Shown in pieces: positions 28,181 to 60,706 of a DNA stretch of 64,000 bases. Below the pieces are notes generated by a model. The model was not told the origin of the DNA. It did not search any database and saw only the letters and a list, made by a program, of their open reading frames with translations. Position numbers and translations under genes: made by a program. The stretch's first letter is position 1, and each line of letters begins with the position of its first letter. Source of the stretch: Raja brachyura (lineage: Eukaryota); contig OY740807.1 in the NCBI GenBank assembly GCA_963514005.1, forward strand, positions 22,258,001 through 22,322,000. Reading direction: 5' to 3'.

Positions 28181-28761
28181 CACAGCTTGGGTATGAGGAA
28201 GGGTCCCGACCCAAAATATCACCTATCCATGTTCTGCAATGAAGACAAAGAAGGCTGTGGAGGCCAAGTCAATGGATATTTTTAAGGCAGTGAGTGATAG
28301 ATTCTTAATTAGTAAGGGGTGTATGGGATAATGGGGAGAAGGTAGGAGAGTGGGGTTGAGAGGGAAAGATAGATTAGCCATGATTGAATGGCAGAGTAGA
28401 CATGAGGGACCAAATGGCTTAATTCTGCTCCTATAACTTATGATCTTGTGAAGTTACTAGACTAAGTGGGACCCGTTGGGTCCCAGCATTACACACGAGG
28501 TCTGGTCCCCCAACTCAATATTCCACCTCTCCACCAATTCCAATATTGGTGGCCAGTGGGGGGGGGGGGGGGCTTTCTGGAGTGCTAGTATGGGTATTGT
28601 GGGCTGAAGGGACTGGTTTCCAGAGGGCTAGGATGGACAATGTGGGCCGAATGGATTCTTGGGCTGGCGGCTCAGTCGTTCAAGCTTGTTGTGCTGGCAG
28701 CTCACTCACTCACGGCTGGTGGGCTGGCAGTTGACTCACGGTTATTCCTTGAAATTCCATT

Positions 28762-28880
28762 TCAAGCAGGGTGCAAGGCCACCAAATTCAAGTGCAGTTT
28801 CTTACCACTTCAAGCAGGGTGCAAGGCCACCAAATTCAAGTGCAGTTTCATACCATCACAAGCAGGGTGCAAGGCCACTA
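28762..28880. repeat. 48-bp minisatellite (about 2.5 copies) inside the Helitron
   Basis: caagcagggtgcaaggccaccaaattcaagtgcagttt repeated. Confidence 0.9.
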
Positions 28881-29075
28881 AAGACAGCGAGTCGTGACCT
28901 CTCCCACACTTCTGGGTTTTATAGTCCCTCCCTCCTCCCACCAGAAGGGGCGTGGCCTTCATGGCATGATTGACAGCAAAGATTGTAGAGGAGCAAGATG
29001 CGCCATTCAGCGAAAAAAACGTAGTATCACATGTGTGATTGTCGACGCCATTTTAGCAGTGTGCCTCAACCAGAG

Positions 29076-29197
29076 ATGGCCTCGACTATGGCGTCTACAT
29101 CTAAATCTTCATCTTACTGCGCGACTATTAATTGCTCTAATGGTCAATGTAGACGACCCGACCTGTCTTTCTTTAGGTTCCCCAATAAAAAAGAAAG
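29076..29197 (+). pseudogene. Transposase exon 1 encoding the N-terminal half of a THAP zinc finger
   Basis: Translates to MASTMASTSKSSSYCATINCSNGQCRRPDLSFFRFPNKKE(R): C-x4-C plus LSFFRFP, ending in a phase-2 donor AG|gtgagg as in THAP genes; downstream exons not seen in this copy. Confidence 0.85.
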
Positions 29198-30060
29198 GTG
29201 AGGAAATATTATTATTTTCTGTCGATATTATTCTGAACTGAAAATTTTATTTTCTGTTCTCCCATCAACGGTCATTGGGAAACTAGGCTCCTCTATAATC
29301 TTTGGTTGGTACATTAGAAAGGTATTAGAATTATTTGTAATAGATCTTTACTTAGCACAATAATAAAATCAATAATTTTAACACTTCTGAAAGTTTTTGG
29401 TTTTGTTCTTGTTAGGCAGGGGTCTCCAAAATATGGCCCAGTGACCACGAGATTTTTCGAGCTCAGATTTGAGTCCGGGAACGCGGAGGCTGTTACCAGT
29501 TACCTGTTACCAGTTATGTCCCTCAAATTGTCCACACAAAATCGTGCCAATGACGATTTATTTATCTATATTACTAAAACTATGATCTTGACCGCTTTCG
29601 ACTTTCTGTTTCATGATTTCCGAGAGAACGCCGCCACATACGGCCGTCATTTTTGGCCACCTCACTCTGTCCCGGGGGGAGGGACTACAATACCCGGAAG
29701 TGTTGTGCCTCACTCAGTCTCTGCAAGAGAGAGGAAGTGAGAGGGTCATGGCTCTCTGAGTGGCGAATAACACTGAACGCACGTCTACTCAACCGTGAGT
29801 CCCCTTGATGTGGTTGTAGAGTGTTTGCCAAATTGTCTTGGCTCTTAAAATCGTTGCAACAGTTTTCGGATGGATAAAGCGAGATGGCGCTGAGTGCCTC
29901 ATTTCAGGTTCGTGGCAAGATGGCGCTGACTGCAGAAGGCACAGAATGAAGACATCGCTGAATAATTCAAGAGAGCTGATTGCTCTGTCAAAGGTTAGTG
30001 TGTTTGTTGGACATTATTTAAAGCACATATTTGCTTCAGCAGCAGCAGCCTCTACAGGAG

Positions 30061-30222
30061 NNNNNNNNNNNNNNNNNNNNNNNNNNNNNNNNNNNNNNNN
30101 NNNNNNNNNNNNNNNNNNNNNNNNNNNNNNNNNNNNNNNNNNNNNNNNNNNNNNNNNNNNNNNNNNNNNNNNNNNNNNNNNNNNNNNNNNNNNNNNNNNN
30201 NNNNNNNNNNNNNNNNNNNNNN
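30061..30222. other. Assembly gap
   Basis: Run of N. Confidence 1.
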
Positions 30223-30589
30223 GCTTCCTTGAATGATGACTTTTGAGATATTATCAGATTATCTTGGTTAAAATTTGACCGCTGAATCTCTCTATTTTTA
30301 AATTCTCTTTTTTTTAATCAACAGCAAAGAGACATAAAGACACAGTGGGCAGCAACAAGAGACACAACAAGAAAGAACTTAATAATTCTCATCTTTTAAA
30401 TTGTTCTTATATTTTAAGAATTATTCACATTTTAAACTTTAATAAATTCTTTTTCCACTTTTCATGCCTGCGTGTTCTTCATCGCAATGGGAACCTAAAG
30501 GGCAGGAATGGATACTCCGTGGGAGAGCCACTAAGAGCAAAGATCCTATAGCGGAGCAAGATGGACCACTCCTGCGAAAAACACGTAGT

Positions 30590-31553
30590 ACTGTTTTTCC
30601 TCACCTCGGTCCTAAATGACCTCCCCCTTATTCTAACACTGTGGCCCCTGGTTCTGGACTCACCCAACATTGGGAACGTTTTTCCTGCATCTAGCTTGTC
30701 CAGTACTTTTATAATTTTATATGTTTCTATAAGATTCCCCCTCATCCTTCTAAACTCCAGTGAATACAAGCCTAGTCTTTTCATTCTTTCCTCATATGAC
30801 AGTCCCGCCATCCCAGGGATCCATCTCGTGAACCTACGCTGCACTGCCTCAATCACAAGGATGTCCTTCCTCAAATTAAGAGATCAAAACAGTACACAAT
30901 ACTCCAGATGTGGTCTCACCAGAGCCCTATACAACTGCAGAAGAACCTCCTATACTGAAATCCTCTTGTTATGAAGGTCAACATTCCATTAACTTTCAAT
31001 CAAATCATCATCAAACAAACTTTATTGTCATTTAGAAATACATCGATATATGCAATTCCAAACGAAATTCTGTTGCATTTGGCTCCCCGTGCAACTGCCT
31101 GCTGTGCCTGCATGCCAACCTTTACAATGACGCCCAGGTCTCGCTGCACCTCCCCCTTGCCTAACCTAACTTCATTGGGATAATAATCTGCCCCCTTGTT
31201 TTTGCCGCCAAAGTGGATAACCTCACATTTATCTATATTACACTGCATCTGCCACGCATCTGGCCTCTCACTCAACCTGTCCAGGTCCCCCTGCAACCTC
31301 CTAACATCCTCTTCACAGTTCACACTGCCACCCAGCTTTGTATCATCCGCAAACATGCTAGTGTTGCTCCTAATTCCCTCTTCCAAATCATTAATATATA
31401 TGGTAAACAGTTGCGGCCCCAACACCGATCCTTATGGCACTCCACTCGCCACTGCCTGCCATTCTGAAAAGGACCCGTTCACTCCTACTCTTTCCTTCCG
31501 GTCTACCAACCAATTTTCTATCCATGTCAACACCCTACCCCCAATACCATGTG
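30590..31553 (-). mobile_element. Young CR1 LINE RT/C-terminal fragment with a short LINE-tail insert at about 30997-31090
   Basis: LGPQLFTIYINDLEEG...FADDTKLGG...LQGDLDRL and VQRRFTRWIPGMAGLSYEER. Confidence 0.95.
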
Positions 31554-31579
31554 CTCAAGATTGACCACTCCTGCGAAAA

Positions 31580-31924
31580 ACAATTGCCAATCGGCAATGT
31601 AAGCATCCTGACTTGTCTTTCTTCAGGTTCCCCATTAAGGAGAAAAGGTAAGAAAACATTTATTATTTCTGTGGCATATTGAAAATTGTATTTAGCTTGT
31701 TCAATCCCTCACTGTAGTTAGATCATTGAGCTCAGATAGTCGAGTCCTCATGGCAACATCCTTGTAAAAATCTTCTCCTCAAGAGCATTTTCTTTCTACC
31801 TCTATTATTTAATGCAGAATAAGAACATATTGACTGCATGATATTTTCTGTAATTTCAGATGTCGTCAGTAGACATGGTCTCCTACACCAAACTGCGGAG
31901 TATTTGTCAAATAACTGCCATCTT
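31580..31924 (+). pseudogene. Decayed THAP exon 1 (to 31646), 213-nt intron, and exon 2 remnant (from 31860)
   Basis: NRQCKHPDLSFFRFP.. ends at AG|gtaaga; acceptor ttttctgtaatttcag is followed by (R)CRQ / RHGLLHQTAEYLSNNCHL, comparable to THAP12-type RCQKW...RRADL.DKT..QL...Y.LC; frameshifted and deleted. Confidence 0.7.
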
Positions 31925-33079
31925 ATGTACATTGTGTGAAATTGTGATTTGTTACCTGCACAAAACAATGCAAATGGCAATTTATTTATTATTGTATCTA
32001 CGTTGAACGTTTTGCTCTATGGTGTAAGAAGGGGTGGGGCTATCATTGTGTTACATATGTTGAATTGTACATCACTTTCACTGGTTAGCTGATATGCTGA
32101 ACACTGCAACCCTGTATATCTCGCGCACAGAATAATGTGAATTATGTAAATCTTACCATGCATGTCAGAAATAAAGTGTTAACCATGTTAATAGGTCTCT
32201 ATTATGATTTATTTAAAATTGAGTGGGTTGGTGCAATATCGGTTCCAGCCGTCAGTGACTGCACTGCTAGCCCACCAGCCGTCAGAGACTGAACTGCCAA
32301 CCCACGAGCCATGAGTAAGTGAACTGCCAGCCCACCAGTTGTAAGTGACTGAACTGCCAGGCCAATAATCCATTCAGTCCACCCTCTCCCCCTTCTCTCT
32401 CACAGAGTCTGTCACCTGTTTTGAGCAGAATATCTGGCAGTTTCTCAGCTGCCAGCCTGTCAGGTAAGAGTGACTGTACTGCCAGGCCTCAGTGACTCAG
32501 TTGCCTGGCCTCAGTGACTGAGCTGCCAGCCCTAGAATCCATTCGAACCACAATGTCCATACTAGCCCTCTGGAAACCAGTCCCTTCGGCACACAAGTCA
32601 ACACCCATACTAGCGCAACAGAAAGCCCCCCCCCCCCACTGGCCAGCAATATTAGAATAGGTGGAGAGGTGGAATATTGCATTGGGTGACCAGCCCTCCC
32701 GTGTGATGCTGGGACACAACGGGTCCCGCTTAGTCTAGTTAATGTATATAAGTTGGAAATGTTGTCCTTTTTTTGAAATATGTTGAATTTGACATCACTT
32801 TTATTGATTAGCTGATATGCAAAGCTCTGCAACCCTGTATATTTTGCGCACAAAATGACGTAAATAAAAAGTGTTTTCCTTGTTTGTGAAGTTCAATTTA
32901 CAATTATTTTAAATTGTGGGGGTTGGTGCAAAATACTGCTGACCCACAAATGTGTCGTTATGAAACATTCACATTTTAAAAATCCACGTCTCTAAAAAAA
33001 GCAAGAAGGTACACATGTTATTTGACCAACTTATCGGCTGAATTTAAATATGTAGGTATGTACCAGAATTTTTGCTCCT

Positions 33080-33391
33080 AATTACCTCTTCAAAATCATT
33101 AATATGTATGGTAAACAGTTGTGCCCCCAACACCGAGCCTTGTGGCAAAAAATTCCAGAAGATTAGTCAAACATGATTTTCCTTTCATAAATCCATACTT
33201 GGACTAATCCTTTTACTGCTATCCAAATGTCCCATTATTGCATTTTTAATAATTGACTCCAGCATCTTTCCCACCACCGAAGCCAGGCTAACTGGTCTGT
33301 AATTCCCTGTTTTCTCTTTCGCTCCTTTCTTGAAAAGTGGGATAACATTAGCTATCCTCCAATCCACAGGAACTGATCCTAAATCTATTGA
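33080..33391 (-). mobile_element. CR1 LINE RT fragment
   Basis: DWRIANVIPLFKKGAKEKTGNYRPVSLASVVGKMLESII. Confidence 0.92.
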
Positions 33392-33629
33392 NNNNNNNNN
33401 NNNNNNNNNNNNNNNNNNNNNNNNNNNNNNNNNNNNNNNNNNNNNNNNNNNNNNNNNNNNNNNNNNNNNNNNNNNNNNNNNNNNNNNNNNNNNNNNNNNN
33501 NNNNNNNNNNNNNNNNNNNNNNNNNNNNNNNNNNNNNNNNNNNNNNNNNNNNNNNNNNNNNNNNNNNNNNNNNNNNNNNNNNNNNNNNNNNNNNNNNNNN
33601 NNNNNNNNNNNNNNNNNNNNNNNNNNNNN
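33392..33629. other. Assembly gap
   Basis: Run of N. Confidence 1.
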
Positions 33630-34455
33630 GTATATATGGTTTATGTACATCATTTGACAAATAGAATAGAGAGTAATAGTGATGCTTTAAATCAAAGTTG
33701 CTTCTGATCCATGAGAAGGAAATGTATTTATCTCTCAAGGGCCTGTCCCACCATGTCCCACCATATATTTATATGAATGTGTGTTTGTATGTGCCTGTAA
33801 TTTTGTGCACAGTGTGTGTTAAAGCAACACAAGGGAAGCTGCACAATACAATGCAAGGGAAACTACGCAAAGGTGGGGGCTGAGGAGGAAAGATGGGAGG
33901 GAAATGGGGGAAATGGGGGAACAGGGGGAAAACATTAAAATTAAATTAACTAAAATATGTGAGGTGATAGATGCGCTATATCAAACACTGTTCCCTACAA
34001 CACTGATTACATCAAGGATGAGCGGATCAAAGGATCTTTGGAGCTGCTATTTTACATGTAAACGTCTATGAATCAGTAAATATTTGACACTAACCCAATG
34101 GCAATTTACATAGCCTGCCATAGACAAACGCATGCAACAAAAGTCCACATCAAAATATAATTTATTCAAAAGACAATTAAACATTCCTGTTTGCAGGCAT
34201 CTCATTTGCAACTGCTATGTAGCTTTGGAGCGGATTACACAGCGGGAGGCACACCGCTAAAATGGCGGCTGTGCCGTTCCGTTACGTACTACACATCAGT
34301 CCATTGAATTTCAGAGGAGTGGCCTATCTTGCTCCTCCAAAATCTTTGATTGACAGGAGAGAGAATCTCAACATTTTTAAAACACTAATAACATTTTTAT
34401 TTTTCACCGACGGGAAACAGGAAGTGGTCAAGATTAGACTTTTAATTATATAGAA

Positions 34456-34870
34456 GGCAAGGCAACTTTAATTAGGCAAGGCAACTTTAATTAGGCAAGG
34501 CAACTTTAATTAGGCAAGGCAATTTTAATTAGGCAACACAGCTTTAGCATTTCCAAACCAAAGGCAACACAGCTTTAGCATTCCAAACCAAAGGCAACAC
34601 GGCTTTAGCATCTCCAAACCAAAGGCAACATGGCTTTAGCATCTCCAAACCAAAGGCCACACAGCTTTAGCATTTCCAAACCAAAGGCAACACAGCTTTA
34701 GTATTTCCAAACCAATGGCAACACAGCTTTAGAGTTTCCAAACCAAAGGCAACACAGCTTTGGCATTTCCAAACAAAAGGCAACACAGCTTTAGCATTTC
34801 CAAACCAAAGGCAACACAGCTTTAGCATTTACAAACCAAAGACAACACAGCTTTAGCATTACCAAACCAT
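34456..34870. repeat. Compound minisatellite in the Helitron: 19-bp unit x4, then about 31-bp unit x11
   Basis: GGCAAGGCAACTTTAATTA x4; GGCAACACAGCTTTAGCATTTCCAAACCAAA x11. Confidence 0.95.
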
Positions 34871-36334
34871 ATTTTCAAACCACATTAACGGCACTGACAG
34901 GTCAGTAAAACCATTCACAGTTTAGTAGACATGTCTTCAGTGTTATTCACAGCTCAGACTGAGAGATGTGACCCACTCGCTCCCCCATCTTGCAGAGACT
35001 GCCTAAGGCACTCAAAACTTCCAGGTTTTATAGTCCCTCCGGATGGGGCTTGGCCTTCAGGAGAGAGAATCTCAACATTTTTTAAACACTAATAACTCTT
35101 TTATTTTTCATCGATGGGAAAAATCCTCTTGTCCTGCGCAGTGAAGGGGGACTCTGAGTAAGATGGCCAAATATCACAGCCGTAAGTGGCAGCGTTTTTT
35201 TCTAAAATCAATATACAGAACAACAGGAAGTGGTCAAGATCAGACTTTTAGTAATATAGATGCCTGACCTGCTGAGTTACTCCAACACTTTGTGTCTTTA
35301 TGGGTTCATCCCCACCAGGAACTGGACTGAAACTGTCCTGTTGTCAGTTGCACTTTTAAGATCTCACTTGTTGCCCAGTGAATATGGTGGCCCTATCTTT
35401 GGACTGCTACGTTCCTTTAGCTAATAGCATTTGACACACAGGCAATTCCAAGTACTTGGCCCGGTGACAATTAAGGTATTTACAATCAATCTAATGATCG
35501 GTGATTGATGTTTTATTGATCAGTGGGAATGAGGCCAACAGGGCAATAGATTGGGTTAGACTTGCTGTATTCTTGCAGATAAAACGTAAGTTAGGAAAGA
35601 TCCATATTGTCACTGGGGCATTGACATGGTTTGGCACTTGGAACCAAAACAGTCTGTTTGGAGTGAATCCAGGTAATAGCCACTGCAGCATTCAATTCCC
35701 ACTGCATTCTGTGTGAATTCTTTCCTCAACACATTGTGTGTGTGAAACTGATTCCCCGGGAAGAACGCAATCCTTCGCAAGGAATGAAGGGACCTGCCAA
35801 GTAAAATAGATTAAGATTTGGTGTCTTAACAAAATCTTTCTCACAAGTCTGCATTTTGGCAAAAGAGCAGAAGGAAGGAACAAACTGGAGCCGAAGGAAC
35901 GAAATAAAGGCAAAGATTGTTCAAAAACAAGATTGTGGGCTTCTTGGTGGTCCCAATGTCAGAACAGGAAGATCTGTTTTAGCCACATCTTTAGTTGTAG
36001 CTGACATTGATGTCCAAATTTAGATGTGAATCATAAATGGAGCAACCACACTTAGCAGAACAGAGCCCCGAAATTCAAACAATGGTTGCAGCAATTCTTA
36101 TGGTCCACAAACCACAGTTGGGATGTAAAGAAAAGTGACTGCAGATGCTGGAATCCTGAGCAAAAAATAAACAGCTGGGGGAACTCAGCGGGTCAGGAAG
36201 CATCGGTGGAGGGAACTGGAGAGACGATGCTTTGGGTCTGAAGAAGGGTCCTGAACAGGAAATGTCATCTGTTCTTCACTCTCCACAGATATGGCCTGAC
36301 CCGCTGAGTTCCTCCAAATTTGCTTTTCGTTCGT

Positions 36335-59654: not shown

Positions 59655-60706
59655 ATAGATTAGATTCTTTATTAGATTCTTTATTTGTCATTCAGACCTT
59701 TCGGTCCGAACGAAACTCTGTTTCCCTGCAGTCATACATATAATTAAAAATAAATAAATAAATAAATGACAGAACACACAATAAACACAAATTTAACATC
59801 CACCACAGTGAGTTCACCAAACACCTCCTCACTGTGGTGGAAGGCAAAATCATAAAGTCTGTGTCCCTTCCCGCTTTGTTTCCCTCTGCGCCGAGGTGAC
59901 CCAGGCCTCAGATGCCGCGACCGTACTGGGCGATGGTAAGTCAGTCCCGCGGTGCAACCGAGCTCCACGAATGGGCCGGTTCAACTCCGCGGCCTGGGGG
60001 GTCCATCGAGCCCGTGGTCGGGCCGCTGCAACCGCTCCGGGACAAAGTCGGGTCGCCGCCCCGGGACCGAGTCGGGTTTCCGCCGCCGCTGTCGTCGCCG
60101 CCGCTGCTGGAACCGCTCCGGTAGTCGGGCCGCTGCTGCCGTGGTCGCCGCCGCCGAAACCGCTCCGGGAGTCAGGCCGCTGCTGCCGCGGTCGCCGCTG
60201 CTGAAACCGCTCCGGGAGTCAGGCCGCTGCTGCCGCGGTCGCCGCTGCTGAAACCGCTCCGGGAGTCAGGCCGCTGCTGCCGCGGTCGCCGCTGCTGAAA
60301 CCGCTCCGGGAGTCAGGCCACTGCTGCCGCGGTCGCCGCTGCTGAAACCGCTCCGGGAGTCAGGCCGCTGCTGCCGCGGTCGCCGCTGCTGAAACCGCTC
60401 CGGGAGTCAGGCCGCTGCTGCTGCCGCCGCCGCCGCTGCTGCCGCCGCCGCCGCTGCTGCTGGAACCGCTCCGGGCCCGAGGCCGCCAGCTCCGCCATTA
60501 GGCCTCGGCGCAGACAGAGACGGGGAACACGACATAAAGTCGCACCCCCCCCCCCCAGAAGGAAGAGACCCGGACATGTTACTCCCCCCCACCCACATAC
60601 ACAATCCAACAAAACTTACGAACCCAACCAAAAAACAGGACATAAAAATAAAATAACAGACAGACTGCAGGTGGGCCGCAGCTGTTAACCCAGCGCCGCC
60701 ATCTTG
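59655..60706 (-). mobile_element. GC-rich SINE-like non-autonomous retroelement with internal minisatellite
   Basis: Minus 5' end caagatggcggcgctggg...; LINE-like 3' tail (aataaagaatct)n; shares its 3' motif with 16460 and 42012. Confidence 0.65.
60128..60409. repeat. 47-bp CpG-rich minisatellite, 6 copies
   Basis: GGCCGCTGCTGCCGCGGTCGCCGCTGCTGAAACCGCTCCGGGAGTCA at 60128, 60175, 60222, 60269, 60316 and 60363. Confidence 0.95.

Follow-up and report, generated by a model that had tools for sequence, protein, structure and literature searches.

The locus examined here raises the question of which superfamily a THAP-domain DNA transposon in a skate genome belongs to, and of what has become of its transposase. 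The locus lies in a 64,000-nucleotide stretch of Raja brachyura (assembly GCA_963514005.1, contig OY740807.1, positions 22,258,001 to 22,322,000 of the forward strand), which we call the window and from whose first letter all plain coordinates are counted. An initial annotation, made from the letters alone, had recognized the transposon by its terminal inverted repeats (TIRs), its target site duplication (TSD) and an open first exon, and had left the choice between the P and hAT superfamilies to later work. The element, at 28977-34348 (5.37 kb), shares its ends with copies elsewhere in the genome that carry a P-type transposase. In our judgment it is probable that the window element is an internally deleted P-superfamily copy and that another copy of the family, on C3, has been domesticated as a host gene that lacks the THAP finger.

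The P-type transposase and its family

The catalytic domain is not visible in the window copy, as the initial annotation had stated, the transposase exons 2 and 3 being deleted there; the evidence comes from longer copies. A genome search with the P-type RNase H model (PF21787) gave 29 matches, one of which lies 2.8 kb inside a left end on C14. This C14 copy is 4,711 bp long and has both ends, a perfect TSD (GGGCCAAG), exon 1, exon 2 and the start of exon 3, followed by a deletion; in Pfam its exons match THAP (exon 2, positions 29-87, E 1.6e-10), PF12017 and PF21787. The same order of exons 1, 2 and 3 recurs on C34 (TSD 7/8), C12, C13, C8 and C10. The question of P versus hAT is thus settled in favor of P, as a copy with the same ends carries both THAP exons and a P-transposase exon. 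The gene of the family has three exons, with the THAP finger split over exons 1 and 2, and the helix-turn-helix (HTH), the RNase H domain, the GTP-binding insertion and the C-terminal region all in exon 3.

The longest transposase frame, on C3, matches PF21787, PF21788 and PF21789, and PF21788 was also matched on C5, C4, C26 and others. Its sole PDB match is the Drosophila P transposase 6p5a (E 1.4e-29), with D230, D303 and E531 aligned; these are the catalytic residues named in the available part of PMC7776569. Among the copies with letters at these sites, the triad is kept in 19 of 21 (first D), 18 of 18 (second D) and 19 of 19 (E), and the C3 frame has all three. Against the column-majority codon, the copies on C14, C5, C4 and C26 have a dN/dS of 0.12-0.15, which we read as the trace of selection that once acted on a functional transposase. 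Every P-superfamily feature open to testing is present, namely TIRs, a 7-8-bp TSD, the THAP finger, the HTH with a split RNase H and GTP insertion, the D-D-E triad and the asymmetry of the ends.

The family is large. The exact 23-mer of the end has 2,372 matches in the genome (1,202 and 1,170 on the two strands; control, 0), from which the family would comprise several hundred to about a thousand elements, a figure below the raw count because many copies carry internal repeats of the 23-mer. For the left end, 1,379 candidate matches were found; among the best 40, which were scored, the best non-self match is 94% identical. The 24 stretches of C1 picked for holding an inverted pair of exact ends, with the best pair taken in each, all have TSDs matching at 7-8 of 8 positions (17 perfect, seven with one mismatch); 14 further stretches gave three such TSD pairs, two pairs with 3/8 and nine stretches without a pair. 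The other copies with these ends and 8-bp TSDs that the initial annotation had foreseen are therefore present, and its proposal of an intron-containing THAP DNA transposon family is supported. The copies are 0.8-7.8 kb long with TIRs of 29-51 bp (28 copies), many retain exon 1, and the target site is biased toward A-GTNNNNAC-T (26 copies). At C1:115124450-115129400, two copies stand in tandem within one 8-bp TSD, which suggests a compound element that moved as a unit.

The two ends differ in a regular way. In 23 of the 24 copies that could be measured, the motif GTAGTA stands 12 bp further in on the right (position 57 from the end) than on the left (position 45); CGCCAT stands at 70 on the left and 82 on the right in 13 of 17 (28 copies examined for each). 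In the Drosophila P element, 9 bp on one side and 21 bp on the other separate the TIR from the transposase site (available part of PMC7776569), so the 12-bp spacing difference is equal in the two systems. In a family of hundreds of copies, this asymmetry of Drosophila type indicates that the geometry of end pairing has been kept far from flies. The interest of the family lies in this conserved asymmetry together with the likely THAP-less domesticated copy.

The C3 copy: host gene or pseudogene

The C3 frame (C3:19710281-19712380) runs for 700 codons from stop to stop, 672 from the first ATG, within a candidate THAP-less P-transposase gene of four exons that spans C3:19706500-19717700. No TIR was found within about 37 kb of the frame. 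The copy has lost its ends and exon 1. Of exon 2, only the last 30 bases and the old donor survive, in a CpG island about 3.2 kb upstream, where they are fused to unique sequence. Compared with the C14 copy, the DNA of the C3 copy is 83% identical in exon 3 and 75% in the remnant of intron 2. As a separate observation, exon 3 of the mobile copies starts with AEHSY, matching the HCF-1-binding motif found in many THAP proteins; the C3 gene does not have this stretch in its coding frame.

The C3 frame is present in six organisms (word shares 0.97 to 0.05), and its splicing was read from contigs of four sequencing runs among the 21 listed (organisms A, C, E and F). The contigs of A, C and E leave at a GT donor 26 bases past the stop codon and resume at C3:19712801, that of F resumes at C3:19717641, and in the contig of C the upstream exon runs directly into the old exon 3 at its acceptor. 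Every joint follows the GT-AG rule, and none of the 3' exons is made of transposon sequence; the C3 locus is therefore orthologous among these organisms and, as we infer, transcribed. Without ends, and with the same downstream exons in A, C, E and F and an RNA origin read from the joints, the locus has the form of a domesticated gene.

Relatives place the gene inside the family. A cluster of 677-aa proteins with 32 members (15 of the 15 listed are full length) is 81% identical to the C3 protein, has the same start, early stop and diagnostic changes, and groups with it as sister in the tree at a support of 100. C3 itself nests among the transposon copies of its own genome (support 98), in a tree from a quick search in which copies of at least 400 residues were placed on the C3 columns and insertions were dropped. 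The equivalents of D230, D303 and E531 are kept, as is that of D444, while F443 has become L in the 677-aa cluster only. At the equivalent of the GTP-contact residue K385, C3 has E and the cluster has Q; the six outside relatives and 15 of the 17 copies with letters there have lysine. Just outside the family stand the transposases P0004, P0005, P0006, P0007 and P0010, from run assemblies and metagenomes, which are 55-71% identical to the C3 frame; the next relatives are at 38%. The hosts of these five could show horizontal transfer, and a metagenome scan for DNA around P0004 gave nothing. The structure prediction for C3 was poor (22-row alignment, mean pLDDT 48, pTM 0.36) and was not used for any conclusion.

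The main alternative is that C3 is only a transcribed pseudogene, which came to lie next to a CpG island, uses its old splice signals and has a frame left open by chance or derived from a subfamily that diverged while mobile. We regard this as unlikely, although it accounts for several observations that weigh against a host gene. Measured against the column-majority codon, the dN/dS of C3 is 0.76, like that of old dead copies. Organism A differs from the 677-aa cluster by 120-127 residues, with a nucleotide distance of about 8.5% and a dN/dS of about 1 or above, a rough value that assumes organism F to be the source of the cluster. Change is not significantly depleted at conserved sites (36/225 versus 70/326, p 0.12; 39/221 versus 63/318, p 0.58; copies of at least 250 sites). 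The contigs of organism E carry -1, +1 and -8 indels in the frame, with both shifted frames rich in stops, and the gene is likely broken or lost there. In addition, none of the runs with the C3 frame is recorded as RNA, the RNA origin being deduced from the spliced joints, and C3 was chosen as the sole open frame among about 40 copies.

What speaks against a pseudogene is, first of all, the frame. With 140 non-synonymous differences, C3 has no stop and no frameshift, whereas 23 dead copies have 64 stops and 103 frameshifts; at their rate about 17 breaks would be expected in C3 (Poisson 4e-8), or 13.5 when reckoned per nucleotide difference (1e-6), far beyond what the choice of one frame among 40 could produce. 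Copy C19, with 30 codons, was left out of the codon-difference count. Organism C, over 2,194 nt and with a single gap that precedes the ATG, likewise keeps the frame uninterrupted, as does the 677-aa cluster; such indels as occur are in frame. A subfamily diverging while mobile should have a dN/dS near 0.13, as do the copies on C14, C5, C4 and C26, and the 75% identity of the intron 2 remnant gives C3 the divergence of an old resident copy. The changes are, moreover, uneven along the protein, with 10 of 134 positions in the N-terminal part of RNase H, 28 of 90 in the HTH and 27 of 101 in the GTP-binding part (p 0.002). Weighing both sides, we think it more likely than not that selection has held the C3 frame open, and C3 is likely an independent, fast-evolving P domestication.

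The nearest model for such a gene is amniote THAP9, a host gene that derives from P, is present once, has no TIRs and keeps the catalytic triad (available part of PMC7776569), and the C3 gene is like it in all these respects as far as that source describes them. Unlike THAP9, which is ancient and keeps the finger, the C3 gene has no THAP finger, is 83% identical in DNA to copies of its own genome, nests within the family and evolves fast. We considered whether C3 is the orthologue of THAP9 and rejected this: it has no THAP exon, it nests with the transposon copies of its genome at a support of 98 in a tree that holds no true THAP9, and the neighbor found is an occludin-like exon. The Pfam model THAP9_C had no match in the genome in a search run without a positive control, and a teleost P-like protein used as query found only this family among the best 56 of 204 candidates, which does not imply that THAP9 is absent. 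The Drosophila P neogenes and the KP and 66-kDa products keep the THAP finger and lose the catalytic end, as far as the available accounts go; the C3 gene is the reverse. KP and the 66-kDa repressors are P-derived products that restrain transposition (available part of PMC7776569), and P has been domesticated repeatedly, according to the accessible portion of PMC3698922.

The origin of C3 and, if it is a host gene, the action of its protein can be pictured as follows. The copy lost its ends, exon 1 and all but the last bases of exon 2; its old exon-2 donor, fused to the CpG-island sequence, is joined to the old exon-3 acceptor and onward to the non-transposon 3' exons. It encodes 672 residues from a new ATG, and would have evolved fast while its frame stayed open. 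Without the THAP finger this protein would probably be unable to recognize the ends alone. Most likely, it would act on or with the transposase of the family or on branched DNA, as a dominant-negative repressor or as an untargeted protein of nuclease fold; the role of repressor is suggested because the THAP finger has been lost and the HTH and GTP-binding parts have changed fast. A fuller account, to which we give about even weight for and against, is that a lineage, likely of cartilaginous fish, was invaded by its own P family and captured one copy independently of THAP9, in which the THAP finger was dropped, the catalytic core kept, the GTP-contact lysine changed and the HTH and GTP-binding parts evolved fast, as would suit a poison subunit that had a part in silencing the family and that some species have since been losing. 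Such a gene, if real, would be a young domestication that can be dated, with its parent family still legible in the same genome; some species kept it and one likely lost it. It would allow two questions to be tested: whether repression of the parent family is the initial reason for capturing a transposase gene, and what remains for a P core to do without the THAP finger.

Insertion, decay and age of the window element

The window element lies between two copies of the 8-bp sequence ATTGACAG, at 28969-28976 and 34349-34356, which form the direct repeat of the TSD. Its left TIR (28977-29007) is about 31 bp long here and pairs with the right TIR on the minus strand (34318-34348), with matches at 21 of 23 and 27 of 32 positions; in most other copies (lengths from 28 copies) the TIR is 35-51 bp. 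Inside it follow the GTAGTA motif (29021-29026, position 45 from the left end; its counterpart on the right is at 57) and a subterminal inverted repeat with an CGCCATTTT core, a candidate protein-binding site, at 29046-29067 (position 70 from the end) and, on the minus strand, at 34246-34267 (position 82), the two 22-mers being inverted and 95% complementary. The first 18 bases of the TIR recur inside the element in inverted orientation (29287-29304, minus strand), as they do in many members of the family. The 8-bp TSD, the 21/23 TIRs and the subterminal 22-mer of the initial annotation are thus all in the sequence.

The element sits in a high-copy host repeat, whose left part (28850-28968, plus strand) is the insertion target; 1,151 candidates were found for it and the best 40 scored. 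All 14 paralogues of the flanking repeat that were fetched have an empty site, in which the right flank directly follows a lone ATTGACAG-like 8-mer; the duplication therefore arose when the window element inserted. Together with the exact 23-mer counts, these empty sites show that the ends are not a product of chance. The host repeat, with CTACAATACCCGGAAGTG-like and AGGGGCGTGGCC motifs, was seen at 28400-28976, 29563-29800 and 34357-35261, that is, on both flanks of the element and, as a related piece, within its body.

Exon 1 (29076-29197, plus strand) holds the first third of the THAP finger. It is open from the ATG at 29076, reads MASTMASTSKSSSYCATINCSNGQCRRPDLSFFRFPNKKER and ends at a phase-2 AG/GT donor at 29197/29198, just as the initial annotation had described it. 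The THAP profile check proposed there succeeded for exon 2 of the C14 copy, with the positions and E value given above, while exon 1 alone, which matches THAP positions 1-28, is weak (E 0.016) and below the cut-off. The exon 2 that it should join in the window does not exist: the sole exon-2-like sequence, at 31860-31940, is the decayed remnant of a nested second copy.

Downstream of exon 1 the window copy matches the left arm of longer copies up to 29502 and the right arm from 29532, with a deletion junction at 29503-29531 that joins intron 1 to sequence downstream of the transposase; no other copy spans this junction among the best 40 scored of 1,195. As the body at 29532-33977 (plus strand) is the region 3' of the transposase in the C26, C4 and C5 copies (87-95% identity), the window copy is missing all sequence between intron 1 and a point past the stop codon of the transposase. 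To judge from these alignments, it is an ordinary deleted, transposase-less derivative of the P family. Runs of N at 30061-30222 and 33392-33629 lie within the element, and the analysis covers the remainder.

The body contains the nested copy of the same P family. Its decayed left end (30538-30590, plus strand; 81% to the outer left end) is also in the C5 copy; being common to the C5 and C4 copies, this second end shows the nesting to be older than the window insertion. The nested copy is interrupted by retrotransposon fragments (30591-31555, minus strand), with reverse-transcriptase-like frames at 30479-30883 and 31000-31431, which are repeated elsewhere in the window and which we take to be CR1-like. 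Beyond them lie its THAP exon 1 remnant (31586-31648, plus strand; 75% over 84 nt to exon 1, tblastn E 1e-6) and, by sequence comparison, its exon 2 remnant (31860-31940, plus strand) with a stop and a deletion.

By analogy with the biochemistry of Drosophila P, the THAP finger would have held the transposase of the family on the subterminal motifs; with GTP, the enzyme would have brought the two dissimilar ends together, cut the element out and placed it at a new site with an 8-bp stagger. Gaps repaired incompletely may then have given rise to the hundreds of deleted copies, mobilized in trans. The window copy would have entered the host repeat in this way, and its loss from intron 1 to past the stop could have come either before or after the insertion.

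The initial annotation had called the family recently mobile, and this is not supported. Among 28 copies, the identity of an end to its nearest neighbor has a median of 97% (left) and 96% (right), a maximum of 98.5% and a value of 93% for the window copy, and the TSDs have mismatches at 7 of 192 positions, affecting 7 of 24 pairs. The transposase copies found with ends are all broken, none having an intact three-exon gene between both ends, and no intact mobile transposase was found among the best 66 scored of 196 candidates, where every match but C3 is broken or partial, or among the 40 of 40 scored in another search. The family appears extinct in this genome, and old rather than recent. Counting against this, an intact mobile copy may have escaped among candidates of which 66 of 196, and 40 of 40, were scored. 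That the family is still or was very recently active, from an intact master outside the assembly or the scored candidates, we hold to be improbable. The 2,372 exact 23-mer ends, the 17 perfect TSDs among 24, the near-intact frames on C5, C4 and C26 with four to six breaks each and the long open frames of the relatives P0004 and P0005 in other data would fit such activity; yet no end among the 28 is more than 98.5% like another, TSD positions have already decayed, and the transposase copies found, other than C3, are all broken or truncated.

Other P systems and neighboring sequences

The weakest alternative, that the element is a hAT (THAP12-like), Kolobok or other THAP transposon carrying P domains as passengers, is hardly credible: hAT elements typically also have 8-bp TSDs with a NTNNNNAN bias, and the window copy has no catalytic domain, but on C14 exons 1-3 lie in order with matching splice phases in one TIR pair with a perfect TSD, the order is repeated on the five other contigs, exon 3 gives P-type domains only, and the TSDs are not TTAA. 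As a candidate of its own, a hAT identity was rejected on Pfam scans of exon 3 that gave P-type domains only at E values up to 0.1, the hAT dimerisation family having had no separate search, and a Kolobok identity on the varied 8-bp TSDs.

One close likeness is to the Drosophila melanogaster P element. The protein shares with 6p5a the THAP finger, the HTH, the split RNase H with its GTP-binding insertion and the aligned triad, and the DNA shares the 8-bp TSD, a TIR near 31 bp, subterminal repeats and many deleted copies. Unlike Drosophila P, the skate family has three exons with an intron within the THAP finger and an unrelated terminal sequence; the similarity of the proteins is weak (106 bits over 400 residues), and none of the mobile copies found here is intact. 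In Anopheles gambiae, P elements have TIRs of 27-32 bp, 8-bp TSDs and short non-autonomous derivatives (P-MITEs), according to the available part of PMC1562414. The skate family is like these in TIR length, in its 8-bp TSDs and in having families of short derivatives; it differs, as far as that source goes, in that the insect has intact masters and in that the derivatives here are 0.8-7.8 kb long, many with exon 1. Among vertebrates, identity to teleost P/THAP9-like proteins is about 36-37%, and those proteins fall into a clade of their own in a tree built without Pdre and tetrapod THAP9. The bearing on the origin of vertebrate THAP genes that the initial annotation had seen is not borne out by this tree, in which the family stands apart from the teleost P/THAP9-like proteins and no tetrapod THAP9 is included.

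So far, most vertebrate P elements described with their ends have come from zebrafish. Its Pdre elements and zfTHAP9 are among the closest known systems: the P-like elements of this vertebrate also have TIRs, subterminal repeats, 8-bp TSDs and deleted copies, and Pdre2 has 13-bp TIRs and about 50 copies, as against TIRs of 31-40 bp and several hundred or more copies in this family (available part of bioRxiv 10.1101/2024.03.22.586318). A literature search for P elements in elasmobranchs, Chondrichthyes or skates found no paper; Repbase and Dfam, which lay outside the search, may hold the family. The words shark, skate, Chondrichthyes and cartilaginous are absent from the main text, as available, of two 2026 preprints on THAP9 domains (10.64898/2026.09.03.748810 and 10.64898/2026.08.31.747927) and likewise from that of PMC10027918. 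No named protein record exceeds 61% identity among the scored candidates of 385-1,225 residues.

Several minor observations concern the surroundings. In the window, tandem arrays with units of 19, 31 and 47 bp lie at 34455-34869, near the element, and at 60099-60438, far from it. Around the C3 gene, a Pfam scan of 100 of the 422 non-repeat frames gave only an occludin-like exon, an integrase zinc-finger fragment (L158:2584-2961) and an env-like fragment near C3:19724200 (L155:3154-3477; Pfam TLV_coat, E 7e-5, just under the cut-off). The occludin-like MARVEL exon lies 84 kb from the C3 gene on the minus strand (L162:5330-6127). Its best named matches are from a caecilian (64%) and a turtle (57%), with shark occludin at 44% and the best unnamed match at 80%, longer full-length records being outside the length range; it is possibly a second occludin paralogue. 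On C14, at 59784193-59787342 (C14:59784193-59787342, minus strand), an open frame of 1,050 codons has a gag-like part followed by reverse transcriptase-like motifs, with a tyrosine-recombinase-like frame of 225 codons about 4 kb on, which we take to be a young DIRS-type retrotransposon interrupted by a LINE.

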